DNA from: Candidatus Woesearchaeota archaeon
GTDB lineage: Archaea > Nanobdellota > Nanobdellia > SCGC-AAA011-G17 > JACQNH01
Assembly (NCBI GenBank): GCA_023246445.1
Contig: JAHFIJ010000002.1
Coordinates: forward strand, 1 to 56,122
Direction of reading: 5' to 3'
Length of the DNA stretch: 56,122 nt
The notes below the pieces were generated by a model, which was not told where the DNA came from, made no database searches, and saw only the letters and a list, made by a program, of their open reading frames with translations. The translations under genes and the position numbers were made by a program. Below, one piece after another: positions 21,950 to 54,809 of the stretch (the first letter of the stretch is position 1; every line of letters begins with the position of its first letter).

Positions 21950-22088
21950 GGGACCTTTAAAATGGCATCTAGTTGTATTATAACTTGGTTAGTATTCCAC
22001 CCTTGGGTATAGCTTTTCTTTTGGGGAAAACCCTGGAAAAGAAGAATAAAGAAAGGTGGAGATCCCGGTTCAAATCCGGGCAACCCCA
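21950..22088 (+). tRNA. tRNA-Pro(UGG), canonical 37/38 intron plus probable acceptor-stem 3/4 intron
   Basis: The 3' two thirds are clear: anticodon arm CCACC-CTTGGG[intron 22008-22053]A-GGTGG, T arm CCCGG-TTCAAAT-CCGGG, and 3' acceptor CAACCCC+A. The 5' acceptor GGGGTTG is only obtained by joining GGG (21950-21952) to GTTG (21972-21975). Confidence 0.7.
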
Positions 22089-22221
22089 TTTTATTAAATG
22101 TGCACTAGTTCAATAGATATAGCATTTTTTTATTCTTATTTTTTAATCTCCTTTAAAAACATTGAAACGTAAACCTTATAAATGTGGTGTAAGGGTTAAA
22201 TAGAATCTAGAAGGTATTAAA

Positions 22222-22434
22222 ATGAGTTCAACAAAAACAGTCAAATCAACAGGAAGATATGGTGTAAGGTATGGCTTAACTATAAGACACAGGGTTTTAG
22301 AGGTTGAGAAGACACAGAGAAAAAAACAAAAATGCCCTTACTGTGGAAGATTAAAGGCAAAAAGAATTTCAACTGGTATCTTTGAATGTGGAAAATGCAA
22401 TGCAAAATTTACCGGGAAGGCATATGAGGTTTAA
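22222..22434 (+). CDS. rpl37ae: Ribosomal protein eL43 (L37Ae)
   Basis: GRYGVRYG and the zinc ribbon CPYCGRLKAKRISTGIFECGKCNAKF. Confidence 0.92.
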   Translation: MSSTKTVKSTGRYGVRYGLTIRHRVLEVEKTQRKKQKCPYCGRLKAKRISTGIFECGKCNAKFTGKAYEV

Positions 22435-22436
22435 TA

Positions 22437-22574
22437 ATGGCAACTTACAAATGTTTTAGCTGTGAAAAAGTTATAAAAAAGGAATATATAAAGAAGAAAA
22501 TAAGATGCCCTTACTGCGGTTCTAAGATTTTATATAAGCCAAGAGATGTCGAGACTATAATCAAGGCGGATTAA
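22437..22574 (+). CDS. rpoP: RNA polymerase subunit P (Rpo12)
   Basis: 45-aa zinc ribbon MATYKCFSCEKV...IRCPYCGSKILYKPR. Below the ORF-track cutoff. In the conserved position after rpl37ae. Confidence 0.8.
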   Translation: MATYKCFSCEKVIKKEYIKKKIRCPYCGSKILYKPRDVETIIKAD

Positions 22575-22575
22575 A

Positions 22576-22905
22576 ATGACTCAAAAAGAAATTGAAGACA
22601 AAATAGAACAATTGCAATTATTTGAGCAAAATATTCAGGCTTTATTAATGCAGAAACAGTCATTTCAAAGCCAATTATTAGAGGTTGAAAATAGTTTAGA
22701 GGAGTTAAATAAGACAAGGGATAAACCTTACAGGATTATTGGACCTATAATGGTATTGAGTGATAAAGAAGAATTAAAAAAAGAATTAAAAGGCAAAAAA
22801 GAAGTATTAGATTTAAGAATTAACAGTCTTGATAAACAAGAAACTGAGATAAGAGCCAAGGCTAAAGAATTACAAGAAGAGGTTGTAAAATCACTTAAAA
22901 AGTAA
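22576..22905 (+). CDS. pfdB: Prefoldin beta subunit
   Basis: Two coiled-coil arms flank a central hairpin (YRIIGPIMVLSDKEE). Confidence 0.85.
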   Translation: MTQKEIEDKIEQLQLFEQNIQALLMQKQSFQSQLLEVENSLEELNKTRDKPYRIIGPIMVLSDKEELKKELKGKKEVLDLRINSLDKQETEIRAKAKELQEEVVKSLKK

Positions 22906-22927
22906 AATAAATTTCTTAGGGAGAAAA

Positions 22928-23188
22928 ATGGAAGGAATTAAAATGGGTATGCAGATTGATGATGTGATTTTTAAATTAGATCAATTAGGCGCTGATGATA
23001 CTATTCCCAGAAGTGTAAGAAAGAAATTGAGAGATGAAAGCAATGTGTTAAAAGAAGATGGAATGGAGTTAAATGTTAAGGTTAATAGGTTATTGGCTGT
23101 TTTAGATGAGCTGTCAACGAATCCCAGTGTTTCTTCTGACATAAGAGCGCAAATATGGTATTTGGTTAGTATTTTGGAATCTATGTGA
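22928..23188 (+). CDS. UPF0147-family archaeal protein
   Basis: TIPRSVRKKL...STNPSVSSDIRAQIWYLVSILE matches the family pattern as remembered. Confidence 0.75.
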   Translation: MEGIKMGMQIDDVIFKLDQLGADDTIPRSVRKKLRDESNVLKEDGMELNVKVNRLLAVLDELSTNPSVSSDIRAQIWYLVSILESM

Positions 23189-23248
23189 AGGTTTATAGAA
23201 AAGCTTATAAATTAAATAGCCTAAAATTCTTAAGTAAAAGGTGCATAA

Positions 23249-23668
23249 ATGTCAATATTCTCAAGAGTGTTCGGAAGCGGAAAGGTTGAGAAGGTCAATA
23301 CTGAGTTAAAGGACGAAGATTATTTAGAATTAGATAATGTAACTGAAAAGATTGGAAAATCTAAAATCTTGGTTAAGTCATTTATGATACGGGAATTTGG
23401 GGATATAAAAGAGCCCATAGATGCTTTAAGAGAGGGTTATACAATTTCTTTAATTAATATCAAGCCATTAAAAGATAAAGATTTAGTTGAATTAAAAAGA
23501 ACAATTTCTAAATTAAAAAAAGTGTGTGATGCTATAGAAGGAGATATAGCTGGTTTTGGAGAAGACTGGATTGTTGCTACTCCCTCATTTGCTGAAGTAT
23601 TTAGAGCTGGTGCAAAACCTACTGTCTCTAAAGAAATTAAAACTGAAGTTAAGGATGATGATTTTTAA
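23249..23668 (+). CDS. sepF: Cell division protein SepF homolog
   Basis: DYLELD, ILVKSFMIREFGDIKEPIDALREGYTISLINIKPL and IAGFGEDWIVATP (SepF/DUF552 layout). Confidence 0.75.
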   Translation: MSIFSRVFGSGKVEKVNTELKDEDYLELDNVTEKIGKSKILVKSFMIREFGDIKEPIDALREGYTISLINIKPLKDKDLVELKRTISKLKKVCDAIEGDIAGFGEDWIVATPSFAEVFRAGAKPTVSKEIKTEVKDDDF

Positions 23669-23715
23669 GATCTTTTTGAAAACTTTTATAAACTTAACTA
23701 CTAATAAACTTTTTA

Positions 23716-24237
23716 ATGGATAAACTAGAAAATCAAAACTGTCCTTTTTGCCATGAAAAGAAATTAATGTTAACACAGGAAGAAATAGAAATTCCTTATT
23801 TTGGAAAGACTTTTTTGTTTGGGATGCAATGTTCCGGCTGTGGTTACGATGAATCAGATATTGAAGCGGATGAACCTAAAGAACCTTCTAAATATGTTTT
23901 AGAAACCAGCGGTGAGGAAGATATGAAAATAAGAGTTGTTAAAAGTTCTCAAGCTACTGTTAAAATTCCTACTTTGAAAATGGAAGTTAAGCCGGGGCCT
24001 ATTTCAGAAGGTTATGTTAGTAATGTTGAGGGAGTGTTAGACCGATTTAAAAAAATTATTGAAGAGCAAAGAGACTTAAGTGAAGATGAGGATGTGAAAC
24101 AAAATGCCAAAAATTTACTTAAAAAATTATGGAAGGTTAAGTTAGGAGATATTCCAATAAAACTGATAATTGAGGATCCTTCAGGAAATTCTGCTATTAT
24201 ATCTCCTAAAGCTAAGATTGAGAAATTGAAGGTATAG
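23716..24237 (+). CDS. ZPR1-type zinc-finger protein
   Basis: CPFCHEKKL...CSGCGY zinc ribbon followed by a ZPR1-like beta domain. Confidence 0.75.
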   Translation: MDKLENQNCPFCHEKKLMLTQEEIEIPYFGKTFLFGMQCSGCGYDESDIEADEPKEPSKYVLETSGEEDMKIRVVKSSQATVKIPTLKMEVKPGPISEGYVSNVEGVLDRFKKIIEEQRDLSEDEDVKQNAKNLLKKLWKVKLGDIPIKLIIEDPSGNSAIISPKAKIEKLKV

Positions 24238-24268
24238 TTTTAAAAAGATTTAGTTTCTATTTAATTAG

Positions 24269-24928
24269 ATGAAAGTCTTGTTTGTGCCGACGTATGTGAA
24301 ATTAGAGATCTTACCTAGTTTAAGAAATGTTAAAACTAAAGAGAAAAGATTAGGGGTAATAACAACTGCACAATTTGTTAATCAATTGGATAAAATTTGT
24401 GAGAATTTAAAAGGAAGCGTTAAAGGCGGACAAATATTAGGGTGTAATGTAGAAAGCGCCAAAAAGATTTTAAATAATGTTGATGCATTTTTGTATATTG
24501 GTTTAGGAATGTTTCATCCCTGGGCTTTAACAGTTTTAAATAAGCCCGTTTACATATTAAATCCACTAACTAAAGAATTTAAAAAAATAAGTGAAGAAGA
24601 AATTGAAAAATATAGGAAGGAAAGAAAAGGCAAAATATTAAGATTTATACATGCTAAAACTGTTGGATTATTAGTAAGTGTTAAGCCATTACAGCAGAAT
24701 TTAAGGAAAGCTTTGGAGCTGAAAGACTCTATTATCGGCAAAAAAGTTTATATTTTTGTTTCTGATAATCTAAATGAAAGACAGTTAGAGGATTTTAAAG
24801 GGATAGACAGCTGGGTTAATACTGCCTGCCCGAGAATTGAAGGGGAGAAAATATTAAATTATTCTGAAATTCCTGAGAAATATTTAAAGAAAAAGATTCT
24901 ATACAGTTATTTGGAAGGGAGTGAGTGA
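24269..24928 (+). CDS. dph2: Diphthamide synthase Dph2-like protein, unusually short (219 aa)
   Basis: GVITTAQF, ILGCN, VGLLVSVKP and NTACPRI. The N-terminal domain of typical ~340-aa archaeal Dph2 seems to be missing. Confidence 0.6.
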   Translation: MKVLFVPTYVKLEILPSLRNVKTKEKRLGVITTAQFVNQLDKICENLKGSVKGGQILGCNVESAKKILNNVDAFLYIGLGMFHPWALTVLNKPVYILNPLTKEFKKISEEEIEKYRKERKGKILRFIHAKTVGLLVSVKPLQQNLRKALELKDSIIGKKVYIFVSDNLNERQLEDFKGIDSWVNTACPRIEGEKILNYSEIPEKYLKKKILYSYLEGSE

Positions 24929-25620
24929 TGTTTTATTTTGAATATTAATTTAACTGTCAAGAATTGTATTAAGACTGCTAAAACAGTTAATTTAAAGCTT
25001 TGAAATTTAAATGTAATAAATAAAGAGGTTAATAAAAAATAAATAAATATAACTGAATTTCTTTCTAAAAACTTTAATTTGCTGTAGTTTGGATTAGACT
25101 CACCAATTGTTTTTATTTTTCCTTTTAAATGTAAAATGTTAAATGGATAAAGCCAATTAATTCCTGAAACTGTAAAGGAATCCTGCAATAGATGAGTAAA
25201 GCAACCTAAAAAAATTCCCATAGTGAAAAATAAGATTGAATTTCCCAGATAAACTGATAATAGTAAGGAAATTATAAGCCAATTGAACGATATTATTAAT
25301 ATTCCAAGTAAAGAATGCCATAAACCTCTATGGGAGATGTTTAATTTCCAAAAGAATAATTTTAATACCCAAGATAAAGGTTTTAAAGTAAATCTTGTTA
25401 ATTTTCCTGAAAATCTTAAAGTAAAATAAATTAATCTTCTTAATGGCTTTTTTGATTTAATATTTAATAAGTAACTATTATTTGCATCTATGGCGTCCGG
25501 GAGCAAAGAGCCTGTAATTAAACCTGAAATTAAGATTAAAAGCACTAAACTGAGATTAAAGAATTTTAAGAAGGGTAAAACTAGTAGTAATGTTATTAAG
25601 ATATGGTATTTTCCTAGCAT
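24907..25620 (-). CDS. Membrane-bound metal-dependent hydrolase (YdjM/DUF457-like)
   Basis: Multi-TM protein with HRGLWHS and HLLQDSFT. Confidence 0.65.
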   Translation of the reverse strand: MLGKYHILITLLLVLPFLKFFNLSLVLLILISGLITGSLLPDAIDANNSYLLNIKSKKPLRRLIYFTLRFSGKLTRFTLKPLSWVLKLFFWKLNISHRGLWHSLLGILIISFNWLIISLLLSVYLGNSILFFTMGIFLGCFTHLLQDSFTVSGINWLYPFNILHLKGKIKTIGESNPNYSKLKFLERNSVIFIYFLLTSLFITFKFQSFKLTVLAVLIQFLTVKLIFKIKHHSLPSK

Positions 25621-25674
25621 TTTGACCTCTTTTAATAAGATAAATTTAAAAAGTATATAAATTTAAAGTATTTT

Positions 25675-27171
25675 ATGCAAAACGAGAGATTATATAATGA
25701 AATTTTAGAATTAGCGTCAAGGAAAAGCATATTTTACCCATCAAGTGAGATTTATAATGCTCCTGCCGGGTTTTGGAGTTTTGGGCCTGTAGGAGAGAGT
25801 ATAAGAAGAAAAGTAATTGATTTCTGGAGGAAAGAGTTTGTGCAGAAGAATGAGATGCTTGAGATTGATGGGTGTATAACTATGCCTGAAGATGTTTTTA
25901 AGGCATCAGGGCATTTGACTTCTTTTGTTGATCCTGAGGTTGTCTGTGGAAAGTGTAAATCAAGATTTAGAGCTGATAAATTATTAAGTGATAAGCTGAA
26001 CAAACTAATCCCAGAATCTTTAAGCTTAAGTGAATTTAATGCAATGATGAAAAAAAATAATATTAAATGCCCTTCCTGTAAAGAGGAATTAAGTGAAGTC
26101 AAGAAAAGCTCTTTAATGGTGCAAAGCAATATTAGGGGTGAAAAGAACTTTTATTTAAGACCTGAAGCTTGCCAATCTATATTCTTAGATTTTTTAAGAA
26201 TGTGCAAAACTATGAGAGTAACATTACCTAAAGGAATTGCACAAATTGGGAAAGCCTTTAGAAATGAAATTTCTCCAAGACAGTCTATTTTAAGATCCGT
26301 AGAATTTATGCAAATGGAAGCTGAAATATTTTTTAATCCCGAGAAGATAAATGATATTGAAGATTTTAAATCAGTTGAGAATTATAAGTTAAGGATTTTA
26401 AGAGCTGGTAAGGAAGATGTAGAGGAAATAAGCTGCAAGGATTTAGTTAATAAAAGATTTATATCTGGTAAATTACTATGCTATTATTTGGCTAAAGAAC
26501 AGCAGTTTTATGAAAAGCTGGGAATTTCAAGAGATAAAATGAGATTCAGGGAATTAAGCAAGGAAGATAGGGCTTTTTATGCTAAAGAGTCTTTTGATTT
26601 TGAGGTTTTAACTTCTATTGGATGGCTGGAATTAAGCGCTAACAATAACAGACAGGATCATGATCTAAAAGAGCATGGTTCCGGAAGTGGGCAGGATTTG
26701 AGTTTTACTGAAGATAAGAAATTTATTCCTTACGTATTTGAAGTTTCTATTGGAGTTGATAGAACTTTGTATGCTGTTTTAGAATTGGGCTTTGTTAAAG
26801 AGAAGGATAGAAATGTATTAAAATTAAATCCAAGATTAAGCCCTTATGATGTTGCCGTGTTTCCTTTAGTTAACAAAGATGGAATGGATAAAAAAGCTAA
26901 AGAGGTTGTTAAAATATTGAAAGATAATTTGTATGAAGTGTTTTATGATGATTCTGGAAGTGTAGGAAGAAGATACAGAAGAATGGACGAAATTGGCGTT
27001 AAGGTTTGCATTACAATTGACGGGGTTAGCTTGAAAAAGAATGATTGCACGCTAAGAGATAGAGATTCAATGAAGCAGATCAGAGTTAAAATTGATGATT
27101 TACCCTGTGTTTTAAATAATATTATTGTTTTTAATAAAGATTTAGAAGAGTTTGGAAAATTTGTTAATTAA
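25675..27171 (+). CDS. glyS: Glycyl-tRNA synthetase (archaeal/eukaryotic alpha2 type)
   Basis: Class II motifs (AFRNEISPR, SIGVDRTLYA) and a C-terminal anticodon-binding domain. Confidence 0.93.
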   Translation: MQNERLYNEILELASRKSIFYPSSEIYNAPAGFWSFGPVGESIRRKVIDFWRKEFVQKNEMLEIDGCITMPEDVFKASGHLTSFVDPEVVCGKCKSRFRADKLLSDKLNKLIPESLSLSEFNAMMKKNNIKCPSCKEELSEVKKSSLMVQSNIRGEKNFYLRPEACQSIFLDFLRMCKTMRVTLPKGIAQIGKAFRNEISPRQSILRSVEFMQMEAEIFFNPEKINDIEDFKSVENYKLRILRAGKEDVEEISCKDLVNKRFISGKLLCYYLAKEQQFYEKLGISRDKMRFRELSKEDRAFYAKESFDFEVLTSIGWLELSANNNRQDHDLKEHGSGSGQDLSFTEDKKFIPYVFEVSIGVDRTLYAVLELGFVKEKDRNVLKLNPRLSPYDVAVFPLVNKDGMDKKAKEVVKILKDNLYEVFYDDSGSVGRRYRRMDEIGVKVCITIDGVSLKKNDCTLRDRDSMKQIRVKIDDLPCVLNNIIVFNKDLEEFGKFVN

Positions 27172-27205
27172 TAAATCTTTTAAATGCTTATAAAACCTGC
27201 AACTG

Positions 27206-27691
27206 ATGTTAAGATGTCCAAGAAATAAGCTTGAGGAGAGTTTAGTTAGAGCACCTTATTTTACTTCTTATTTTAGAAAGAAGATAATTTCTACAGTTAG
27301 AGAAAATGGGTGTTTTTATGATCTGGTTGATTTTGAATTATATTTCATAAGGGCTGTTGCATCAAGAGATGTTCCTGATCTTGCAGTTTTTGGAAAAGAC
27401 CAATCAACCAAGTTGTTTGCAATAAGAGAAATGTGGGACTGGACTGAATATTTTGAAGATGAGGTTGAACCGATGACAAATACCCAAAAAAATTTCATTT
27501 TTGCTAAAATACCCCTTTCTGAAATTGTTGGTGGTTTGTTTCGTGGATGTTTGGATAGATTAAATTTTGAAGGTGTAAAAGATATATCTTTTGTTAGGTT
27601 TAACCCTATTGCTTTTGATATTGATGAATATGATTCTATTGTTGGTAAGATTGTTTTTATAGCTTACGGTAATGCTTTATTTAGAAGATAA
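27206..27691 (+). CDS. Hypothetical protein, paralog A of 28043-28549
   Basis: Shares KLEE.L, Y.IR.VAS, F.RF and GK.VF...G.AL.RR (C-terminus) with 28043-28549. Confidence 0.55.
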   Translation: MLRCPRNKLEESLVRAPYFTSYFRKKIISTVRENGCFYDLVDFELYFIRAVASRDVPDLAVFGKDQSTKLFAIREMWDWTEYFEDEVEPMTNTQKNFIFAKIPLSEIVGGLFRGCLDRLNFEGVKDISFVRFNPIAFDIDEYDSIVGKIVFIAYGNALFRR

Positions 27692-27964
27692 TTAAATTTG
27701 TATTAATTGTTTTTTTCTTATTTTGTATAAGCCTTCAATAAAATCTGTTCCTGCATAGCCTGCCAGTAAAGATAATTTTAAGTCATTTGGAAAGAATAAA
27801 CCTGCAAATAAACCAATGATGCCTGAGGCTATTAAAGTGAATATAATTGCCTGTAATTTAAAACCCTTAATTTTAGGATCTAGCTTGTATTTAAGAAAGC
27901 CAACACAAGCTCTTGCTATGCCCCCGATAAGACCAAATAAAGCTGCTTGTATATATGGTTCCAT
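27692..27964 (-). CDS. Small three-TM membrane protein
   Basis: 90 aa with three hydrophobic helices rich in Gly/Ala. Located between the two paralogs. Confidence 0.5.
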   Translation of the reverse strand: MEPYIQAALFGLIGGIARACVGFLKYKLDPKIKGFKLQAIIFTLIASGIIGLFAGLFFPNDLKLSLLAGYAGTDFIEGLYKIRKKQLIQI

Positions 27965-28042
27965 AAATTTAGTTAGATTAGTGAATTAATAAAGATTTTG
28001 ATGATGCAAAAGATTTAAAAATTATATGTTATTTTTGAGATT

Positions 28043-28549
28043 ATGCGAACAAGATACGCCTCTACTAAACTGGAGGAAAGATTATTTAAACCACCTCATT
28101 GCAGCTTTATGTTCCAAAAAGAATTTTGGTCGAGGCATATAATACAGGGTATAACTTACGATATGGATGTGTTTTCGATTTATTTGATCAGGGTTGTTGC
28201 TTCGAAAGTTAGTGATCTTAATGTTTATGCTGTATTTGAGCCATCAGATGGGGGGAGTGACGATGGTCAATGGAGTTTATTTAACTCCGGAGAAGTTTAT
28301 AATATAGCGACAGATGCTTCCAGTAATATTAAGCTGGCTGAGCTATTCGTGCCTGATATTCTTTATGAAAAATATCCTAGGGAAATTGTTGATATCTTAC
28401 CAATTGAAGTTTTAGTTTCTACTATAAAATTTATTAGGTTTGGAATTCCGATAAAAGAACAATTACCACGTTTAAGTCTAGGACCTTATGATATTGCGAT
28501 TGGAAAGGTTGTTTTTGAAGTAAATGGCAAGGCTTTGTTAAGAAGGTAA
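28043..28549 (+). CDS. Hypothetical protein, paralog B of 27206-27691
   Basis: See 27206-27691. GC-richer coding sequence than neighbours. Confidence 0.55.
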   Translation: MRTRYASTKLEERLFKPPHCSFMFQKEFWSRHIIQGITYDMDVFSIYLIRVVASKVSDLNVYAVFEPSDGGSDDGQWSLFNSGEVYNIATDASSNIKLAELFVPDILYEKYPREIVDILPIEVLVSTIKFIRFGIPIKEQLPRLSLGPYDIAIGKVVFEVNGKALLRR

Positions 28550-28583
28550 TTTTATAAATGCGCTTCTTGATTCAATTGGTGTT

Positions 28584-28716
28584 GGGCCGGTAGTTCAGTC
28601 CGGTAGAATACTCCCATGGCATGGGAGGGGCCTCGGGTTCAAAAGAGTTTTCTTTAAAAAAGAAACCTCGTAAAGAAAGGTTGAAAGAAAGAAAGCTGAA
28701 AGTCCCGACCGGTCCA
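28584..28716 (+). tRNA. tRNA-Ala(GGC) with ~60-nt T-loop intron
   Basis: Acceptor GGGCCGG/CCGGTCC with the G3:U70 Ala identity pair, anticodon arm CTCCC-ATGGCAT-GGGAG, and T stem TCGGG (28633-28637)/CCCGA (28704-28708). The T-loop TTCAAA is interrupted at about 28644-28703. Confidence 0.85.
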
Positions 28717-28767
28717 TTCATTCATAAGGTTTTTAATTGAAATTGTTGAGGATGATTATTGATAAAA

Positions 28768-29109: not shown

Positions 29110-29146
29110 TAGAAAATTATTTAAGTCAGTTTGATAGAACATTTGT

Positions 29147-29545: not shown

Positions 29546-29589
29546 AACCCAATATTTTTTAAATGCTGTTAATCTGATATTTTTTATAA

Positions 29590-29664
29590 GTCTCGGTAGC
29601 TCAGCATGGCTAGAGCACGGGTTTCATAAGCCCGGGGTCGAGAGTTCAAATCTCTCCCGAGACA
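29590..29664 (+). tRNA. tRNA with CAU anticodon (elongator Met or Ile2), intron-less
   Basis: GTCTCGG-TA-GCTC...GAGC-A-CGGGT-TTCATAA-GCCCG-GGGTC-GAGAG-TTCAAAT-CTCTC-CCGAGAC-A. Confidence 0.9.
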
Positions 29665-33366: not shown

Positions 33367-33413
33367 TTCATTGCGCTACATAGCTATGGTCTTTTCCAGG
33401 CAATTTCATAATA
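33367..33413 (-). repeat. endA 3' end, repeat copy attached to the intact gene
   Basis: Partner of 31921-31967. Confidence 0.8.
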
Positions 33414-33968
33414 GGTGCATGATCCTTCTTCGTCAACAATAGCCATTAGCAATCTTTTTCTTGTTGAGTGGGCTACACGATTTTTAGCTGCGAATTCATA
33501 CCATGTTAAAGTTTCTGTTTCATGAACAGGGTAAACAATCCATTTGGCATGATCTTCACCTGGTTTAATGCCTCTATCATAAACCCTAAAGTCTGCACCG
33601 AATTTTAGAGCTGTTTTGACTATATAGCCCCTATTTCTTAGATCTGAATAGGCACAATAACGAACCCAGAATTTAGGCTCTACTTTTGTTGCTTTTTTAA
33701 TGTAATTATCTGAGTTTAATTCTGTTTTACCATCTTTTATAATCATTTTCCCACGCTCAATTAAATGCAGGGCTTCAACCAAGGCATATTGCATTTTACC
33801 TTTAATTGGCTCTCCATATCTGCCTTGATCATAAAATAGCCTTGAAACCTGAGAATCAGGAGCTAAAACTCTTTCTCTGGATAGTTCAGCTAGGATTTTT
33901 TCTTCAGTTTCGGGCAGCTTCTCAACTGCTTCTGAAACTACGATTTTTGCTTTTTCTTCTTTTGCCAT
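33384..33968 (-). CDS. endA: tRNA-splicing endonuclease EndA (194 aa)
   Basis: RNRGYIVKTALKFGADFRVY, HAKWIVYPV and STRKRLLMAIVD. ATG at 33968 (MAKEEK); the longer track ORF overlaps the rnz promoter. Confidence 0.88.
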   Translation of the reverse strand: MAKEEKAKIVVSEAVEKLPETEEKILAELSRERVLAPDSQVSRLFYDQGRYGEPIKGKMQYALVEALHLIERGKMIIKDGKTELNSDNYIKKATKVEPKFWVRYCAYSDLRNRGYIVKTALKFGADFRVYDRGIKPGEDHAKWIVYPVHETETLTWYEFAAKNRVAHSTRKRLLMAIVDEEGSCTYYEIAWKRP

Positions 33969-34036
33969 TATGGGACATAAACAAAAACTATTTAAAAAGC
34001 CTTTCTTTTGAAAAAGGAAACTATAGAGAGAAAAAA

Positions 34037-34948
34037 ATGATAAAATTAACATTTTTAGGAACGTCTTCGCAGATACCGACTGTTGAAAGGAATCATACGG
34101 CAATCTTTCTTAATTATCAAAGTGGCAAAAGCAATGAAAATATATTAGTAGACTGCGGAGAAAATACTCAAAGACAAATGAGGATTATGAAGATTTCTCC
34201 TAATAGCCTGGATAAGATATTTTTAACACATTGGCATGGAGATCATACATTAGGATTACCCGGATTAATACAAACTTTAAATGCACATGATTATAATAAA
34301 ATTCTTGAAATTTATGGCCCTAAGGGGATTAAGAAATATTTTGAGTTAATGCTGAAGGCTTTTTTATTAGAGAAGAAAATAAATTTTAGAATTCATGAGG
34401 TTGAAAAGGGAGGGATAGTATATGAAAGTGATGATTTTAAGATAGAGGCTAGTTTTATGGATCATACTGCTCCTTGTTTAGGATACAGCTTTGTTGAAAA
34501 AGACCGAAGAAGGATTAATATGAATTATCTGAAAAAAATGAATATAAAACCCGGACCAATATTAAAAAATCTACAAGAAGGGAGAAATATTAAAGTAAAT
34601 GGAAAATTAATAAGTGTTAAGAAGGCTACGAATTTAGTTAAAGGCAAGAAGGCTACAATAATATTAGATACAAGATTAAATAAGAATATTGAGAGATTAA
34701 GCAAAAATTCTGATGTTTTGGTTATTGAAAGCACTTTTTCCAGTGAATTAGAAGATAAGGCTCGTGAGTATAGGCATTTAACTTCTATTCAGGTGGGTAA
34801 GATTGCCAAGAAATGCAGAGTTAAAAGATTAGTATTGACACATATATCCCAGAGGTATGAGAATAATTTAGATATTTTATTGAGTGAGACCAAAAAAATA
34901 TTTAAAGAGAGCTTATTGGCAAAAGATTTTATGATTTTGGAGATTTAA
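34037..34948 (+). CDS. rnz: Ribonuclease Z (tRNA 3' processing)
   Basis: MIKLTFLGTSS and HWHGDHTLGLPG (HxHxDH). ATG at 34037; the track ORF start 33806 is an upstream extension. Confidence 0.9.
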   Translation: MIKLTFLGTSSQIPTVERNHTAIFLNYQSGKSNENILVDCGENTQRQMRIMKISPNSLDKIFLTHWHGDHTLGLPGLIQTLNAHDYNKILEIYGPKGIKKYFELMLKAFLLEKKINFRIHEVEKGGIVYESDDFKIEASFMDHTAPCLGYSFVEKDRRRINMNYLKKMNIKPGPILKNLQEGRNIKVNGKLISVKKATNLVKGKKATIILDTRLNKNIERLSKNSDVLVIESTFSSELEDKAREYRHLTSIQVGKIAKKCRVKRLVLTHISQRYENNLDILLSETKKIFKESLLAKDFMILEI

Positions 34949-46038: not shown

Positions 46039-46044
46039 AATTCA

Positions 46045-47531: not shown

Positions 47532-47578
47532 ACTATTAGATAAGGTTTTTAAATACAATTCTTATGAATTCTTAAGAT

Positions 47579-47728
47579 AGCCCCGTCGTCTAGCGGCCAA
47601 GGATAGAGCCCTTTGAAGGCTTTGACGGAAGTTCGAAATAGCTTTTCTTTTGAGTAAAGCTTGAAGAGTCCTTGTGTGGACTTTAAGAAAAAAATTAGGA
47701 AAAGAAAGCGAAAGTCTTCCCGGGGCTA
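47579..47728 (+). tRNA. tRNA-Gln(UUG) with ~77-nt T-loop intron
   Basis: Acceptor AGCCCCG/CGGGGCT (A1:U72), anticodon arm GAGCC-CTTTGAA-GGCTT, and T stem GGAAG/CTTCC (47716-47720). The T-loop TTCGAA is interrupted at about 47638-47715. Confidence 0.85.
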
Positions 47729-47762
47729 TATATTTATATAATTAAAAATAATCTATAGCTTT

Positions 47763-48548
47763 ATGTTTTGGATTAAAAGAGAGAAAAAAAGAGGGCAGGC
47801 TTCATACTTTGTTTTAGCAGGGATTATTGTCTTTATGGTTTTAGCAGTATTGGTTTTTATTTTTTCTACTGAGCAAGTTAAATCAAAAGTAAAGTTTGAG
47901 AATTTAGAACTGCCCATTAAAATTGAAGATGTTGAAAGAACTATTGATTCTTGCTTAAAAAAATTAACTGAAACGGCTATAAATTCTATAGCTTTTAATG
48001 GTGGTTTTATTGATATAAGAAATTCTCCTATTGAACCATTAGGATTTTATTTTCCCGGAACGAAAAGTAAAGCTAAAGTTGCTTATGGGTTATTTAATGA
48101 TAATATAGTTTTAATAAGCGAAGAAGGGTTTAAATATCAATTAAAAGAATACTTGAGATATGAAGTTCCTCTTTGTTCTTTTCCTAATGGATTTAAATCA
48201 AATGTTAAACAGAGCGATATTAATGTAGATGTAAAAATATCCCCGGGTTTTGTTGATATTGAAATGAATTATCCCCTTGTTTTGAAAGTTGGAGATCTAA
48301 ATGCAAAAACAAAGGAAACGTATAAACTTAAATTAAAGTCTAATATTGGTGAAATGCGTAATGTTGCAGAGGAAATTGTTAAACAGCAGAAAAAGTATAA
48401 TGGACAAATTGAAATTTCGAATATACTATCTTTCGGATATGATATAAAAGTTATTCCTATAGACAAGAATACTTCGGTGATTATGATTTATGATAAGGGG
48501 TCTACTGGTTTGATATTTATGTTTGGGAGCAAGAACAAAAATGAATAA
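47763..48548 (+). CDS. Type IV pilin-like (class III signal peptide) protein
   Basis: The N-terminus KKRGQASYFVLAGIIVFMVLAVLVFIF fits the archaeal prepilin signal (basic, G, small residue, hydrophobic helix). Confidence 0.6.
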   Translation: MFWIKREKKRGQASYFVLAGIIVFMVLAVLVFIFSTEQVKSKVKFENLELPIKIEDVERTIDSCLKKLTETAINSIAFNGGFIDIRNSPIEPLGFYFPGTKSKAKVAYGLFNDNIVLISEEGFKYQLKEYLRYEVPLCSFPNGFKSNVKQSDINVDVKISPGFVDIEMNYPLVLKVGDLNAKTKETYKLKLKSNIGEMRNVAEEIVKQQKKYNGQIEISNILSFGYDIKVIPIDKNTSVIMIYDKGSTGLIFMFGSKNKNE

Positions 48549-51153
48549 GGTCAAATTAATTAAACTATTTTTGTTATTACTGTTAATTTTAATATATGTT
48601 CAAAGAATAAATTCTACACCAGAGATTGAGGGGCAGGACCAAAATGTAAATGATGTTAAAATTAAAGTACATGGTAATGTTGAACTAAAAGAAGGTAAAG
48701 ATTCTTACGAGATCACTGCTACTAAAGATAAAGGACTAGTTCAGATTGGTGAATCGATTTATGATGCTTCTTTTTTGCAAATACCCTCAAACAGCAGATT
48801 AGTGATCTTCAAAGGATTTGCGAATAATGAGAAAAAAATCTTACTTTATTTATCTCCAGATTCTAACGGCGATATTGGATTTTTAAATATAAAGAAAGAC
48901 TTTGAGCCTACGCTTATCTTTAGTAATAGGGATAAAGTATCCTTTTTGGAAAGAGATACTAAGCTAAGGGTTAATAAAGGAACTTTAGAGATAAATAAGA
49001 ATAAAAAGATTTTCTATAAAAATGGTTATTCTAATGGTTATTTAATTCTTAGATCTAATTCAGAAGTGAAAATAAATCCAAAAGGTTTAAGTGGTAGTTT
49101 TAAAGTATTCCAAAAAGAAACTGGCTTTGTTGTTGGTGAGGTTGAAGGTGAAAATCTTATTGTTTTATCTACTGAAGAATTAAATGAACGTGTAGGGGAT
49201 AATGTTGTAGTTTTTTCTGATAATTTTGTTAATAAATTTATTAAGGGCGATGTAAAATATAAAGACAATGCTTATGAGTTTACAGTTGAAACAGATAAGG
49301 CAAATGTTGAAATTAAACCCGGCAGTGTTAAATTCTTGGAAGGAAAGGGTAAGATTATTAGAATGGATAAAACAATTAATGTTGAAAATGATAAACTTTT
49401 AGTTCTAACTTTTCTTGAGAAAGAGAATAAAGATAAATCTAAAGAAATTGAAAAATCTAAATCAGAGATTATAATATCAACTAAAAAAGAGAATATAAAG
49501 ATTGATAAGGTTGGCGGTATAAAAAGTATAGCAAAAGAAAATTCTGCTGAGTATAATATATACAATTCTTTGGGTTCTGTTGATATTAGTGAATTTGACA
49601 AAGAACAATTGGCTCTGTATAATACTTATTTAATTGGTGGGATTGATGATGATTCAGCTGCGTGGTTAGCGAGGAATCATAAAGAAATAAATCTGAAGAT
49701 GGCTATTCCTTTTTTAAATAATGGATTTTTTGTGCTTAGTGTAATTGATTTTATGGAGAAGGGTGTAACCTTCGATAAAGCGAAAGCTTATTTGGATGTA
49801 GGGGTAGAGGCCATGGAGATAATACCGCTTATTGACGAGGATATAAGTCCGTTAGAGGTTAAGAAATATAGCTCTTTAGGGGTGGAAACTGATCTTAATC
49901 AGCTTGTAAAATTGAATATACCTGATAAGGTTATTAAAGATTATCAAGAGGTTCTTAAGAAATATCCTTTTGAAAAATATTATCAAACTTCTTTTTTTAG
50001 GGGGGGATATATCTCTCGCTTAGCGGATATATCGAAAGTTGGCGAACTTTATGCAAGACTGCATTATTATAACATAAAACCTAAACAATTGGATACTTAT
50101 CTAAACACACTATTAAAACCTGAACATTCATTAAAATTTACAATTGCTTTGCGATCCATTGACGATTTTGTGGAGTTAATGAGGTTGAAAATTCTACCTG
50201 ATACTATCGTGGATTATTTTGATAAAGGGGGTTATAATTTTGGGGATATTCTTAGTTTTTATAAAGCTGGTATGAAACCTAACGAGATGAAAGAATACCA
50301 AAAAATTGTTGGTAGTCGGACTATGGGCAGAGTAGATTATGGGGTGAAATTAGAAGAAGTAAGAGAATATAATGAAGCTGCAGAAACGACTTTTGACTAT
50401 AAGGAAATTGCTGAACTTAAGGATTTAGGCGTTAAGCCAAAGGGAGTGAAAGAATTCCTGAAGAAGTATAATAATTCCCTTGAAGGTAGTTCTGAATTTA
50501 AGAAACAATATGAAGAAAGAATGAATGAGTTGAATTTAAAAGTAGAAGGAGAAAATAAGAAAAGATATAGCCTTCCGACTCTTGATCTTGTTTCGAGGAA
50601 TTGGAATAGTGAAAAGGCGGATAAACCTGTAGCACTTGTGATATTAAACCGTAATGATTGGAACGGGGCATTTTTAAATATAGATGAGCTCTACTATTCG
50701 TTGTCTGATAAATATTACTTATTAATTACGGAAGCATCAGAGGAGGAGGAAGCTCAAGAGCAGCTTAAAAAAGCAAAAGAAAAATTTGGTGCAATAAGTT
50801 TTGTGTTGATTGGGGGGCATGGAGAACCATCACAAATTAATCTTGGTGATGGGGATGGTGAGAAATATTATATCGACAATAAAGATAAAGATTTTTTTAA
50901 TGTGTTGAAGGATTCGACAAGGGATGGTGCTGTTGTTGTTTTACAGAGTTGTAGTGCAGGTAAGGGGGATAGTTCTATAGCAGAAGAGCTTAGTATGGGT
51001 AGTCAAAGAACTGTGTTTGCGCCTACTTGCCCATCAAATATTAGAAGATTCGTTTTAGGGGATAAAGGTGTGGTGGATGTGGAATATGTTAACGGAGTTC
51101 AAGTTACAAGAAAATTTGAGCCTAAAATAAAACAACTTAATGCTGGAAAATGA
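48541..51153 (+). CDS. Large secreted protein: beta-rich N-half, degenerate short helical repeats, C-terminal His/Cys alpha-beta domain (clan CD/CPD-like)
   Basis: Signal peptide MNKVKLIKLFLLLLLILIYVQRINS. Repeats of the type G(V/M)KPxxxKE(Y/F). The C-terminus has VALVIL, YYLLITEA, FVLIGGHGEP (His codon 50818-50820) and VVVLQSCSAGKG (Cys codon 50950-50952). Confidence 0.7.
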   Translation: MNKVKLIKLFLLLLLILIYVQRINSTPEIEGQDQNVNDVKIKVHGNVELKEGKDSYEITATKDKGLVQIGESIYDASFLQIPSNSRLVIFKGFANNEKKILLYLSPDSNGDIGFLNIKKDFEPTLIFSNRDKVSFLERDTKLRVNKGTLEINKNKKIFYKNGYSNGYLILRSNSEVKINPKGLSGSFKVFQKETGFVVGEVEGENLIVLSTEELNERVGDNVVVFSDNFVNKFIKGDVKYKDNAYEFTVETDKANVEIKPGSVKFLEGKGKIIRMDKTINVENDKLLVLTFLEKENKDKSKEIEKSKSEIIISTKKENIKIDKVGGIKSIAKENSAEYNIYNSLGSVDISEFDKEQLALYNTYLIGGIDDDSAAWLARNHKEINLKMAIPFLNNGFFVLSVIDFMEKGVTFDKAKAYLDVGVEAMEIIPLIDEDISPLEVKKYSSLGVETDLNQLVKLNIPDKVIKDYQEVLKKYPFEKYYQTSFFRGGYISRLADISKVGELYARLHYYNIKPKQLDTYLNTLLKPEHSLKFTIALRSIDDFVELMRLKILPDTIVDYFDKGGYNFGDILSFYKAGMKPNEMKEYQKIVGSRTMGRVDYGVKLEEVREYNEAAETTFDYKEIAELKDLGVKPKGVKEFLKKYNNSLEGSSEFKKQYEERMNELNLKVEGENKKRYSLPTLDLVSRNWNSEKADKPVALVILNRNDWNGAFLNIDELYYSLSDKYYLLITEASEEEEAQEQLKKAKEKFGAISFVLIGGHGEPSQINLGDGDGEKYYIDNKDKDFFNVLKDSTRDGAVVVLQSCSAGKGDSSIAEELSMGSQRTVFAPTCPSNIRRFVLGDKGVVDVEYVNGVQVTRKFEPKIKQLNAGK

Positions 51154-51983
51154 AAATGGATAGACTAAGATTTGGAACTGCTGGAATTCCGATTTGCACT
51201 AATGGAGACACTCTAAAAGGAATAGAAACTGTCAGGAAATTAAAATTAGATTCTATGGAATTGGAATTTGTAAGATCAATTAATATTAGTAAAGAGAAAG
51301 CACCTTTAGTTAAACAAACAGCTCAAAGAAATGACGTAATATTAACCTGCCATTGTCCTTATTTTATAAATTTAAATTCTGATGAAAAGAAAAAATATTA
51401 TGCTAGTATTGGTTATATAAAAAATTCTGCTATTATAACCTCTTTGTGTGGGGGTTATTCGGTTTGTTTTCATGCAGGTTATTATCAAAAAGAAGATCCT
51501 GAGAGGGTTTATGAGAAAATTAAAGAAGGAATTAAAACAATAGTGAAAGAAGTTAAAGATTTTGATGATAAGATCTGGATAAGGCCTGAAATATCCGGAA
51601 AAAAATCACAATTTGGCGATTTGAAAGAAGTAATCAAATTAAGCCAGGAAATAGAACAAGTAATGCCCTGCATTGATTTTTCCCATTTATTTGCCAGAAG
51701 TGTTGGAAAAAATAATACTTACGAAGAGTTTAGTGAAATCTTAAAAGATATTGAAAAAGAATTAGGAAAAAATGCTTTAAATGAAATGCATATACATGTA
51801 GCAGGAATTGAATATACAGATAAAGGAGAGAAGAATCATTTAAGATTGGAAGAAAGCAAGTTTAATTATAAGGATTTATTAAAGGCTTTAAAAGAATTTA
51901 AATGCAAAGGGGTTGTAACCTGTGAAAGCCCTAATATTGAGAGTGATGCCATATTATTACAGAAGGCTTATAATAGCTTTTAG
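51150..51983 (+). CDS. nfo: Endonuclease IV-like TIM-barrel protein (AP endonuclease family 2)
   Basis: RFGTAGIP, ELEFVR, HCPYFINL, FHAG, IRPE, CIDFSH and HIHVAG. Confidence 0.75.
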   Translation: MKMDRLRFGTAGIPICTNGDTLKGIETVRKLKLDSMELEFVRSINISKEKAPLVKQTAQRNDVILTCHCPYFINLNSDEKKKYYASIGYIKNSAIITSLCGGYSVCFHAGYYQKEDPERVYEKIKEGIKTIVKEVKDFDDKIWIRPEISGKKSQFGDLKEVIKLSQEIEQVMPCIDFSHLFARSVGKNNTYEEFSEILKDIEKELGKNALNEMHIHVAGIEYTDKGEKNHLRLEESKFNYKDLLKALKEFKCKGVVTCESPNIESDAILLQKAYNSF

Positions 51984-52651
51984 TCATATCTTTCTGTTTT
52001 AATTTGCTCTTGTTTAACATTTAAGGATTTTAACTCACTTACCATTGAATCTACGAACAAGGGTGGGCCACAGATAAAATACAAGGAACTTTCTTTAATA
52101 TGCTTTTTTAATAGATCTTTAGTAATCCTTCCATTTTTAATTTCTTTATGAATCTCTCTTGTTAATGTAAAAACTTTTTCTATTGATAGTTTCTGAAGCT
52201 CTTCTTTATAGGTTATGTCTTTTTCTGTTTTGTTTGAAAATAATAATGTTTGTTTAATTTCCTGTTTATTTTTTAACAAATATTTTATAATTGATCTTAT
52301 TGGTGCGATGCCTGAGCCTGCTGCAATGTGGATTATATTATCAGTATTTTCATTATTATAACAAAATGATCCGTAAGGCCCTAAAGCTTCAAATTTGTTT
52401 TTTAATTTTGTTTTATCTAACAATAATGTTGAAGCTTTTCCGTTTAATGTTTTTTTAACTGTAATCTCAATATAATCTTTTTCATCTGGTGAAGAGGAGA
52501 TTGAGTAAGGCCTTCTTATTTCTTCGTTATTTATTTTAAAAATGAATACTAAAAATTGTCCCGGCTTAAATTCTAAAGGATTATCTAACGAAAACCTAAA
52601 TGTTTTTGTATCCGGGGTTTCATCTGTTATTTTTATTAATTTTAATTTCAT
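51980..52651 (-). CDS. Ferredoxin-NADP reductase-like FAD/NAD(P)-binding oxidoreductase
   Basis: RRPYSISS (RxYS) and HIAAGSGIAPI. No Fe-S tail. Confidence 0.75.
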   Translation of the reverse strand: MKLKLIKITDETPDTKTFRFSLDNPLEFKPGQFLVFIFKINNEEIRRPYSISSSPDEKDYIEITVKKTLNGKASTLLLDKTKLKNKFEALGPYGSFCYNNENTDNIIHIAAGSGIAPIRSIIKYLLKNKQEIKQTLLFSNKTEKDITYKEELQKLSIEKVFTLTREIHKEIKNGRITKDLLKKHIKESSLYFICGPPLFVDSMVSELKSLNVKQEQIKTERYD

Positions 52652-52696
52652 TTTTAGAATTACTTAAATTTAGTTTAAAAGAGTTATGAACCTTTG

Positions 52697-53107
52697 TTAC
52701 TGTAATTTAGATAAATCCCTGTTTATTATAACGGGATTCATGCCAGTTAATTCATCTTTGAAAATATTCTCTGGAATTGGATTGAATAAGTAAATCTTTT
52801 TGTTTAATTCAAATGCTTTTGCTATTTCTAAGAAAGTTGCACCCCCTATATAATTGGGCTGGTTATTCTTTTCAAAGTTTAGAACTAAAACTGCGTCATT
52901 TTTTTCAATATTTGGTTTATCTTTACGAAGCATTTCTGCTTTCCATTTAATGTGCTCTTCTTTGCCAATTTTTTTCATTTCTTCTTCTTTGAAAGGTTCA
53001 TTATAACTATTAGGTAAATGGATTTTATGACCCTGACTTTCCAATTGTTCTTTTATTTCAGGTATTTTATTATAGAAATGCTTACTACAGCATATTATTA
53101 TATTCAT
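52697..53107 (-). CDS. Nucleoside 2-deoxyribosyltransferase-like small protein (tentative)
   Basis: Flavodoxin-like pattern IIICCS...NDAVLVLN...GGATFLEIAKAFELNKKIYLF. Confidence 0.35.
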   Translation of the reverse strand: MNIIICCSKHFYNKIPEIKEQLESQGHKIHLPNSYNEPFKEEEMKKIGKEEHIKWKAEMLRKDKPNIEKNDAVLVLNFEKNNQPNYIGGATFLEIAKAFELNKKIYLFNPIPENIFKDELTGMNPVIINRDLSKLQ

Positions 53108-53139
53108 AAATTCTTGTTAAGAAAAGACATATAAAAGGT

Positions 53140-53418
53140 TTACTGGGGGGCAACTTCTTTTCCTGTTTCCAAGTCAATGATTTTTATAACTCTTACAGGA
53201 CAGACATTAGCTGCTTCTATGTTTGCTTTTAAGTCCTTTTCATCTATTATTACTTCTTCTATAATTCCGTTAATTTTTTTTATTTCCGGCTTCTTATTTG
53301 TAACAATAGAGGCTTTGCCGTCTTCTTTTAGGACCCAGTATTCAGGATTAACGGCTACGCAAGCTGCTGCGCCTATACAATTATCCCTGTCATAGATTAT
53401 TTTGTATTTCTTTCCCAT
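53140..53418 (-). CDS. Small ferredoxin
   Basis: DRDNCIGAAACVAV ... ANVCPVRVI. Confidence 0.75.
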   Translation of the reverse strand: MGKKYKIIYDRDNCIGAAACVAVNPEYWVLKEDGKASIVTNKKPEIKKINGIIEEVIIDEKDLKANIEAANVCPVRVIKIIDLETGKEVAPQ

Positions 53419-53575
53419 ATGATTAAAGAATTTGAACAGTTTAAAAGATTTATGTAGGAAGATTTAAAAAGGATTGCTGTGGTTAAATTTGGAAGGGTAA
53501 AGCAGTGAGAGCTTCTTTATACCGGAACTGAATTAGTTCTGTGTAAGCTTAAAACTGTTTTAAAAATTGTATAAA

Positions 53576-54031
53576 ATGGCAAGACAATATTCAAGGAGAA
53601 AGGGAAAATCCGGATCTAAAAAACCATTAAAGATAGTTAAGAAAAGCTGGTTAAGATATTCTGATAAAGAAATAGAAGCTTTGGTTGTAAGATTATTTAA
53701 TCAAGGGAATAAGGCAAGTCTAATAGGAATGATATTGAGAGATGTTTATGGTGTTCCTGATATTAAAACTGTAACTGAAAAAAGTGTTACTCAAATATTG
53801 AAAGAAAATAATCTAGAGCGTAAATTACCTGAAGATTTAACTGCGCTTATATTAAAGGATATTATTATTATGAAGCATTTAGAGAAAAATAAAAAGGATA
53901 TGCCTAGCAAAAGGGGTTTAATATTGACTGAAAGCAAGATAAAGAAATTGGCAAAATATTATAAAAAAATTGGAAGACTACCGCAAGAATGGGTCTTTAA
54001 TAGGGAGAATGCTAAACTATTGCTAGAATAG
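53576..54031 (+). CDS. rps15: Ribosomal protein uS15 (S13e type)
   Basis: MARQYSRRKGKSGSKKP..., LILTESKIKKLAKYYKK. ATG at 53576. Confidence 0.9.
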   Translation: MARQYSRRKGKSGSKKPLKIVKKSWLRYSDKEIEALVVRLFNQGNKASLIGMILRDVYGVPDIKTVTEKSVTQILKENNLERKLPEDLTALILKDIIIMKHLEKNKKDMPSKRGLILTESKIKKLAKYYKKIGRLPQEWVFNRENAKLLLE

Positions 54032-54050
54032 TAGAAAAAGAAAGCTAAAA

Positions 54051-54620
54051 ATGGAAGAAAAGAAGCAACAGGTCAAAATTGAAAAGGAAAAGAGAAAATG
54101 GTATCAGATAATCGGGCCTAAAATATTTGGTGGGAGATTGATAGGCGAAACTATTGGCGAGAGCATTGAGAAAATAAGCGGGAGAGTATTAGAGTTAAGT
54201 GCTGGAATGGTAAGCGGAGATATGAAGAAGCAATATATGACTTTAATTTTTGTTTTGAATAGCGGGGATAATAATACATTAAATGCAAGTATTACTGGAC
54301 TAAAGGTTTCTCAGTCTTATCTGAAGAGGGGTATGAGGAGATTTAAGGGCAAAATAGAGGATTCTTTTGCTGTAAAATGCTTGGAAGGGGATGTAAGAAT
54401 AAAAGTTATGCTCTTATTGAGGGGCGAAGTGCATAAGGCAGTTAGTGGCAAATTAGTAAAATTATGCAGGGAAATAAGTGGCAAATTTACAGAAGGTAAG
54501 AAAATTGAGGATTTGGTTTTAAGCGTTTTAAATGATAGTTTTAGTAGGGGTATAAAAGAAGGTTTAAAGAGGGTATATCCTGTTGCTAGTGTTGAAGTAA
54601 AGTATCTTGCTAAAGAATAG
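54051..54620 (+). CDS. rps3ae: Ribosomal protein eS1 (S3Ae)
   Basis: KRKWYQIIGPKIFGGRLIGETI. Confidence 0.9.
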   Translation: MEEKKQQVKIEKEKRKWYQIIGPKIFGGRLIGETIGESIEKISGRVLELSAGMVSGDMKKQYMTLIFVLNSGDNNTLNASITGLKVSQSYLKRGMRRFKGKIEDSFAVKCLEGDVRIKVMLLLRGEVHKAVSGKLVKLCREISGKFTEGKKIEDLVLSVLNDSFSRGIKEGLKRVYPVASVEVKYLAKE

Positions 54621-54695
54621 AATTATAGTTTAATATAGTTATAATGAAACTTTTTAGGAAGGTTTTTAAAACGGTTTTTTATAGAATTTATTAAT

Positions 54696-54809
54696 GCCCT
54701 CATAGCTCAGCGGTAGAGCAACGGTTTTGTAAACCGTAGGCCATGGGTTCAAAATAGCTTTTCTTTTGGGAAAAACCCTAGAAAAGAAATGAAATTCCCA
54801 TTGAGGGCT
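54696..54809 (+). tRNA. tRNA-Thr(UGU) with ~42-nt T-loop intron
   Basis: Acceptor GCCCTCA/TGAGGGC plus U73, anticodon arm ACGGT-TTTGTAA-ACCGT, and T stem ATGGG/CCCAT (54797-54801). The T-loop TTCAAA is interrupted at about 54754-54796. Confidence 0.85.

Follow-up and report, generated by a model that had tools for sequence, protein, structure and literature searches.

How archaeal tRNA introns arrive in the genes they interrupt is an open question. Families of introns shared between tRNAs of different isotypes are known from Thermoproteales (PMC4033280, PMC4090602), and published summaries of that work infer intron transposition, with its mechanism left unknown (PMC4090602). We describe here such a family in the genome of a Candidatus Woesearchaeota archaeon (GenBank assembly GCA_023246445.1, referred to as G000; 883,077 bases in 46 contigs, a draft that is 91% complete). 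The family is traced from one contig of this genome (JAHFIJ010000002.1), a stretch of 56,122 nt that we call the window and that holds four interrupted tRNA genes, through the whole of G000, two congeners (G001 and G002) and 151 genomes of the order. The core of the introns is also the sequence of an interspersed repeat, which makes G000 a concrete lead on the origin and spread of the introns.

As far as the summaries of the Thermoproteales work go, the two systems are alike in having near-identical introns, dependent on the bulge-helix-bulge (BHB) motif, in tRNAs of different isotypes, at canonical and noncanonical positions and in unrelated tRNA bodies. Unlike the Thermoproteales, which are Crenarchaeota, the host here belongs to the Woesearchaeota within DPANN, its tRNA-splicing endonuclease (EndA) is alpha4-like and lacks the crenarchaeal loop, and position 59/60 in the T-loop is strongly dominant. 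The core is, moreover, found as an interspersed repeat outside RNA genes (and, in relatives, in 23S rRNA), which the same summaries do not report. Introns at T-loop position 59/60 have been described in pre-tRNA-Cys(GCA) and pre-tRNA-Pro(GGG) of ARMAN-2 (Candidatus Micrarchaeum acidiphilum), like G000 a DPANN archaeon with BHB introns at this site (PMC3239211). ARMAN-2, however, has a three-unit epsilon2 EndA with a special loop and few such introns, with no shared family or repeat link reported (PMC3239211), whereas in G000 at least 16 genes share one family and EndA resembles the plain alpha4 type. Kaneta et al. found that DPANN genomes with an alpha4-type EndA hide many disrupted tRNAs (PMC5829648), and a census of Asgard archaea revealed repeated lineage-specific gains of BHB introns, many of them missed by standard tRNA finders; copying, mobile elements and reverse transcription were all tested there, and no route emerged (10.64898/2026.10.13.758758).

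Our own literature search turned up no paper linking BHB intron cores to an interspersed repeat. Among bacteria, Rickettsia palindromic elements (RPE), reportedly described by Ogata et al. in 2000, and REP-type repeats are short hairpin repeats without a transposase of their own, found in small host-dependent genomes both between genes and in frame inside them. Both are bacterial, longer than the repeat described here (RPE ~100-150 bp) and not spliced out. No RAYT-type partner with a matching hairpin was found in G000.

Unrelated tRNAs share one family of introns

A first-pass annotation of the window had placed a 14-mer, ATAGCTTTTCTTTT, at positions 22009-22022, 47638-47651 and 54754-54767. 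All three copies were found, each at the 5' end of a tRNA intron (tRNA-Pro 37/38, tRNA-Gln 59/60 and tRNA-Thr 59/60, respectively), and the whole genome holds no other exact copy (three observed; 0.06 expected from base composition). The near-identity of the Pro and Thr introns over ~35 nt that it had claimed was borne out as well: 38 of 40 aligned core positions are equal, and a BLAST search within the genome aligned 35 nt at 94% identity (E = 2e-9). ARAGORN called only a tRNA-Met in the window and Rfam added one truncated tRNA at 54696, such that both programs missed or truncated the host genes of all three copies.

For the genome-wide census we searched for T arms, whether continuous or interrupted, that have a matching acceptor stem behind them. 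At least 16 of the ~38 recognizable tRNA genes of G000 carry an intron at position 59/60: Val GAC, Met CAT, Arg TCG, Arg GCG, Ala GGC, Ala TGC, Gln TTG, Thr TGT, Ile GAT, Glu TTC and Ser GGA, plus five of less certain identity. Other sites of the family core are 37/38 (in Pro, Ser GGA and Trp), 28/29 (in the initiator tRNA-Met) and approximately 31/32 (in tRNA-Leu(TAA)). All intron copies are in sense orientation. Standard finders recover only 19 to 26 of the ~38 tRNAs, about half, because so many of the genes are split in the T-loop.

Introns of different isoacceptors were 80%-98% identical (global alignments, gaps counted), versus 45%-65% for the corresponding exons. Ten intron pairs reached at least 80%, the top pairs having identities of 0.98 (a tRNA on contig C37 vs. 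Ser GGA), 0.97 (Arg TCG vs. Ala GGC), 0.92, 0.90, 0.86 and 0.83; the whole Thr and Pro introns were 0.81 identical. Some introns of unrelated tRNAs matched at 52/53 to 57/59 positions, and the highest identity among 3800 shuffled pairs was 65%. When introns were clustered by sequence, as the first-pass annotation had proposed, 11 of the 20 family introns fell into cross-isotype clusters at ≥80% identity, and the family mapped to all four of the positions named above. The corresponding cross-isotype share is 1.5% in Asgard archaea and 28% in Thermoproteales (10.64898/2026.10.13.758758); these shares are computed over all introns and ours over family introns only, which makes the figures not strictly comparable, and G000 differs from the Asgard genomes in having a candidate donor repeat.

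The intron core is an interspersed repeat

An nhmmer profile and a sequence-only covariance model put the family at about 35-36 copies in G000, roughly half of which lie outside tRNA genes. Free-standing copies, which had been proposed as something to look for, are thus abundant, and the moving unit, which had been taken to be an intron, is not solely an intron. Since about half of the copies are non-tRNA, the donor could be an interspersed repeat rather than another tRNA. At the same time, tRNA genes make up ~0.5% of the genome yet hold about half of the copies, corresponding to a ~90-fold enrichment of the motif.

The strongest single link between introns and free copies is an exact 35-mer shared by the start of the tRNA-Ala intron in the window (28644-28678), the tRNA-Arg(TCG) intron on contig C23 and a non-tRNA site at C14:4708-4742 (8e-14 occurrences expected from base composition). 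Many other non-tRNA matches had E < 1e-5. Single copies fill short gaps between a stop codon and the next start on contigs C12, C40, C29, C14 and C44, and on contig C23 the reading frame of the gene preceding dnaK continues into a copy (23440-23510), which becomes its C-terminal tail; some copies are apparently translated in frame, yielding short lysine-rich inserts or C-terminal tails. Three tandem arrays (C27:6585-6745, C15:17035-17146 and C12:18414-18505, with periods of ~49, 41 and 38 nt) have three to four identical units each; lacking unique spacers, they are not CRISPR arrays. The unit of the C27 array is of the same subtype as the tRNA-Trp intron and as the tRNA-Pro intron of the congeners. 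Ten of 11 free copies are co-oriented with neighboring genes. Rfam returned no family match for ten free copies, no tRNA exon remnants were seen in the non-tRNA copies inspected, and no BHB was found around the free copies at the C29 and C15 sites when these were read by hand.

We consider it likely that the family is an interspersed hairpin repeat and that copies landing in tRNA genes (in rRNA genes, in relatives) persist as BHB introns. One could argue instead that an AT-rich genome, together with the need for an inner helix, yields similar arms independently; the arms are indeed of low complexity, and at a tolerance of two mismatches the 14-mer exceeds its frequency in window shuffles only about twofold (11 vs. 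5.5). Such convergence has, in our judgment, a negligible chance of being the explanation, given that the three exact 14-mers against 0.06 expected are confined to introns, that matches of 35 nt are exact, and that identities between introns lie above the maximum among shuffled pairs. The non-intron copies, rather than being a generic low-complexity motif that occurs equally often in any DNA of this genome, as the first-pass annotation had allowed for, are a specific repeat.

Structure of the repeat

The repeat is ~35-45 nt long and each copy folds as a hairpin when folded individually. The subtype of the Thr and Pro introns has an outer CTTTTC/GAAAAG stem around an inner GGG/CCC stem, as had been predicted and as we see in the folds of both introns; in other copies the inner stem covaries (GAAG/CTTC, AAG/CTT or AGAA/TTCT). 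A second subtype, to which most free copies also conform, consists of the pyrimidine arm T(a)-C-T(b), the complementary arm A(b)-G-A(a), a short linker and a mirror arm A(a)-G-A(b). A TGA(A) ending is common to many copies, whether they lie in introns or not. All three arms were consistent at 20 genome sites, across five (a,b) length variants. The mirror arm was matched at these 20 of 48 sites, compared with 9.7 (maximum 16) when the third arm was shuffled, an excess that is only suggestive because the 20 sites are related copies. A mirror purine arm fits the needs of an intramolecular purine-motif triple helix, and the sequences are suggestive of such a fold. RNAalifold found no consensus structure in a MAFFT alignment of 21 copies, a null result that reflects indels misaligning the arms.

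Splice sites and interrupted tRNA genes in the window

At the 59/60 site, T-loop bases 54-57 form the central helix with bases near the 3' end of the intron: TTCA with TGAA or, in Gln, TTCG with CGAA. The two bulges, of 3 nt each, consist of A58-A59 plus the first intron base and of T60 together with the two final bases of the intron. The T stem serves as outer helix and the hairpin of the repeat as inner helix. All 59/60 introns tested had 4/4 central pairs and a 4-bp outer helix, and Thr, Gln and Ala were also checked by hand, so the motif is canonical despite its noncanonical position. Removing the introns restored standard cloverleaf tRNAs, which ARAGORN called as Thr(TGT), Gln(TTG), Ala(GGC), Arg, Ile, Glu and Val; the outcome was clear for single T-loop introns and ambiguous for genes with two or three introns, whose positions were parsed by hand. 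The intron sequences inspected contained no pair of C/D boxes, a C/D-box guide RNA having been considered.

The tRNA-Thr(TGT) gene (54696-54809, plus strand, as are all four genes; folding z-score -4.5) is interrupted at 59/60 by a 42-nt intron (54754-54795) whose core hairpin folds. In its BHB, TTCA (54-57) and TGAA at the intron 3' end form the central helix, the T stem provides the outer helix, and AA|A and AT|T are the two bulges. In the tRNA-Gln(TTG) gene (47579-47728) the 59/60 intron is 77 nt long (47638-47714) and has the family ends, sharing with Pro and Thr only the first ~16 nt and the 3' purine arm; a 35-40-nt hairpin is nested between these, and the nested piece is also present in the tRNA-Val(GAC) intron on contig C15. 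The TTCG/CGAA central helix appears in the minimum free energy (MFE) fold of the Gln intron.

The tRNA-Ala(GGC) gene (28584-28716), found by the T-arm/acceptor scan, is a fourth interrupted gene that the first-pass annotation had overlooked. Its 59-nt intron at 59/60 (28644-28702) belongs to the second family subtype, has 4/4 central pairs with the T stem as outer helix, and is identical at 57 of 59 positions to the tRNA-Arg(TCG) intron on contig C23.

The tRNA-Pro(TGG) gene (21950-22088) has two introns. ARAGORN left it unresolved and it was parsed by hand only (acceptor GGG+GTTG/CAACCCC, anticodon loop CTTGGG+A, and an intact T arm with a partial Rfam match at 22060-22080); orthologs exist in both congeners. 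The 46-nt intron at 37/38 (22008-22053) contains the repeat core at 22009-22043, and its BHB is relaxed: in the MFE fold, three of the four central pairs form (CTT with AAG), alongside a bulge of three nucleotides, AAA. The 19-nt intron at 3/4 (21953-21971), read directly from the sequence, lacks the repeat core and has a perfect BHB (two 3-nt bulges on opposite strands, holding the splice sites, on either side of a 4-bp helix): a central helix GATG/CATC formed with 5' leader nucleotides, bulges GG|A and TA|G, and an outer helix ACAA/TTGT. The D stem of this tRNA is unusually weak, with three AT-only pairs and a T-T mismatch, in comparison with a GC-containing D stem in the congeners.

Intron content and cores differ among congeners

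Intron presence differs among the three congeners at Gln 59/60, Thr 37/38 and Pro 3/4. For tRNA-Gln(TTG), whose promoter and trailer flanks are conserved in all three, G000 has the 59/60 intron only (77 nt), G002 has introns at 37/38 and at 59/60 (44 nt), and G001 has one at 37/38 and an intact T-loop. The Gln intron of G002 keeps TGAA, forming a G-U pair with TTCG, whereas that of G000 has CGAA, a full Watson-Crick match; the change from TGAA to CGAA looks like an adjustment after arrival. For tRNA-Thr(TGT), the 59/60 intron of G000 has a counterpart in G002 with a diverged core, next to an extra 16-nt intron at 37/38, and no ortholog was found in G001. For tRNA-Pro(TGG), G000 has the 37/38 intron with its Thr-like core and the 3/4 intron; both congeners have an intron at 37/38 with another core subtype, that of the G000 tRNA-Trp intron and of the C27 array, and the 3/4 intron is absent from both.

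Orthologous introns are only 0.56-0.70 identical overall, and cores resemble introns of the same genome more than their orthologs. The G000 Pro core, for instance, is 0.83 identical to the G000 Thr core, compared with 0.66 and 0.56 to its own orthologs, and the tRNA-Pro comparison shows what appears to be an existing intron core replaced by a Thr-like one. The first-pass annotation had read the relatedness of the introns as evidence for recent transposition or gain and against vertical inheritance. Its negative half holds on the sequence comparisons made here: the contrast between intron and exon identities, the Gln site and the cores all speak against inheritance of the introns along with their host tRNAs. 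Its positive half fails for Pro 37/38, which is not a new gain given that both congeners have an intron there; what is recent in this gene is the replacement of the core and the 3/4 intron.

Copies outside tRNA genes are polymorphic too. The C29 spacer site is occupied in G000 but has no copy in G001 or G002, and the antisense, in-frame copy found in two reverse transcriptase (RT) genes of G001 has no counterpart in the RT gene of G000. On contig C63 of G001, a further copy lies immediately at the 3' end of a reading frame resembling TnpB. Filled and empty sites among congeners, for a core that is the sequence of an interspersed repeat, make the arrival of introns a question that is testable in a defined lineage.

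These comparisons bear on the idea that copying runs only from intron to intron, by homologous recombination or gene conversion, and that the non-tRNA copies are by-products or look-alikes. Conversion is what the tRNA-Pro 37/38 intron resembles, being present in all three congeners with only its core differing, and cores are homogenized within a genome. Conversion cannot, however, create the Gln T-loop intron, whose site is intact in G001, nor does it account for the exact 35-mer and the many matches of E < 1e-5 outside tRNA genes, or for spacer and coding-sequence copies that are themselves polymorphic; we regard intron-only copying as improbable.

Distribution across the order

At least one match was found in 89 of the 151 genomes of the order, leaving about 40% with none, and several separate lineages hold at least 26-38 copies each. 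In two other families of the order, the core is found in 23S rRNA, in the 23S leader, in D-loop and anticodon-loop introns, in stop-to-ATG spacers and directly after a tRNA, and three coding sequences apparently contain it in frame. Many independent assemblies contain the family, which makes mis-assembly or binning an unlikely source of the identities between contigs. One genome from these families, G094, has the core at two loci of its contig C14 (89435-89872 and 92286-92720), inside the 23S rRNA gene (region 2373-2705 of the Rfam LSU model) and ~35 nt upstream of the 23S 5' end; its in-frame copies include one in a dihydrouridine synthase-like gene.

A pattern of this kind might also be expected of a functional RNA or DNA element that is kept by selection and repeatedly recruited, for example, as a protein-binding or triplex hairpin, in transcript stability or processing, or in guiding EndA. 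The covariation of the three arms and of the inner stem, the co-orientation of free copies and their precise placement in stop-to-start gaps, and the conservation of the core over several families would all suit such an element. The patchy distribution, with many complete genomes lacking the repeat, the presence and absence of copies at orthologous sites, the in-frame copies within coding sequence and the tandem arrays are more typical of a spreading repeat. We think a functional element is rather unlikely as the explanation, although the functional and the spreading-repeat readings are compatible and do not exclude each other.

Origin and spread of the introns

In the reading that we favor, the repeat would be copied or exchanged at the DNA level, and copies in tRNA genes would survive only where a BHB forms. 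The single alpha4-like EndA would cut the motif wherever it is located and the RtcB ligase would rejoin the exons; existing introns would then be overwritten by other members of the family, as the swap of the Pro core illustrates. Nearly all tRNAs have identical T-loop bases, so that one intron sequence fits many tRNAs, which would explain the at least 16 genes interrupted at 59/60. A plain alpha4-like EndA would appear able to coexist with many introns at a noncanonical position, provided that the motif itself is canonical.

Several points weigh against this reading. The direction of transfer is one, as the introns could be the source of the free copies instead. At the C29 site, ~10 nt of the empty alleles are replaced by ~37 nt in G000 with no direct repeat and thus no clean target-site duplication, although the diverged flanks leave room for a decayed one. 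We found no transposase or autonomous element in G000 that shares the hairpin or the ends of the repeat. Three congeners are few enough that presence and absence fit gain and loss alike, copy counts across the order are lower bounds, and the sequence is T-rich, purine-rich and of low complexity, such that matches with E above ~0.01 may be due to chance. The census of multi-intron tRNAs was partly parsed by hand, automated resolution being ambiguous, and that the introns are spliced out is inferred from the BHB motif and from the restoration of tRNAs upon intron removal.

A more specific proposal, which we put forward tentatively and hold to be somewhat less probable than its negation, is that the pyrimidine-purine-purine, triplex-capable module is itself the vehicle of BHB intron gain. 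The module would be copied into DNA almost anywhere and bring its own TGAA-type tail, its three-arm fold would be recognized by a copying enzyme of the host, and rRNA introns would be seeded likewise. A copy would become an intron without further change wherever this tail can pair with its target; because the T-loop, with its universal TTCR, would be the best target, a hot spot at 59/60 is to be expected.

Splicing enzymes and mobile elements

The endA gene (33384-33968, minus strand; 194 aa) encodes PF02778 and PF01974 in one protein and is the only copy found, with no other match to either domain in the 91%-complete genome. The protein is collinear with the homotetrameric enzyme of M. jannaschii (1A79), carries the catalytic motifs Y, H and K, and shows no insertion close to the catalytic His. 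A single gene, N- and C-terminal domains, the Y-H-K residues and the lack of a second subunit gene make it look like the alpha4 type. Its homologs in Candidatus Woesearchaeota assemblies reach 86% identity. RtcB is encoded at C38:4733-6017, where two adjacent matches (profile positions 1-271 and 285-426) lie ~10 nt apart, perhaps reflecting a frameshift, a split gene or an assembly error.

The genome also encodes a group II intron-like RT of 400 aa without a maturase domain (C31:12053-13255), which adjoins a topoisomerase gene. Such an enzyme would be called for if the introns spread at the RNA level, with excised, possibly circular introns re-entering other RNAs at BHB-like sites by a reversed EndA/ligase reaction, followed by reverse transcription and recombination. 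A TGAA tail would pair with any T-loop, in keeping with the 59/60 hot spot, and the uniform sense orientation of the intron copies points the same way. No BHB was found, however, at spacer and coding copies (with C29 read by hand), one copy is antisense, and RT genes, present in 69 of the 151 genomes, show no clear link to copy number. To our knowledge, moreover, reverse splicing by EndA is not an established reaction. Spread through RNA strikes us as having only a slim chance of being correct, about the same as that of intron-only copying. The RT was also considered as a driver of the repeat in general and rejected on the same grounds, RT genes not tracking copy number and the high-copy genomes G006 and G034 having no detected RT.

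The endA gene is divergent from an open reading frame at 34037-34948 with a metallo-beta-lactamase/tRNase Z-like fold, a probable RNase Z. The two are separated by a 68-nt spacer (33969-34036), which would serve both tRNA-processing enzymes as a common control region. A weak, incomplete copy of the repeat in this spacer (33995-34021, plus strand) is made of the pyrimidine arm and the first purine arm; with nhmmer E values of 0.04-0.19, it could be due to chance.

The only transposon genes found in G000 are a TnpB fragment on contig C7 and an IS200/IS605 element at C44:24080-25640, which consists of a TnpA (Y1_Tnp) with an internal stop and a 375-aa TnpB. The element seems an unlikely mobilizer, the left-end hairpin next to its TnpA being unrelated to the repeat. 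It lies ~700 nt from tRNA-Ser(GGA), a gene with two family introns.

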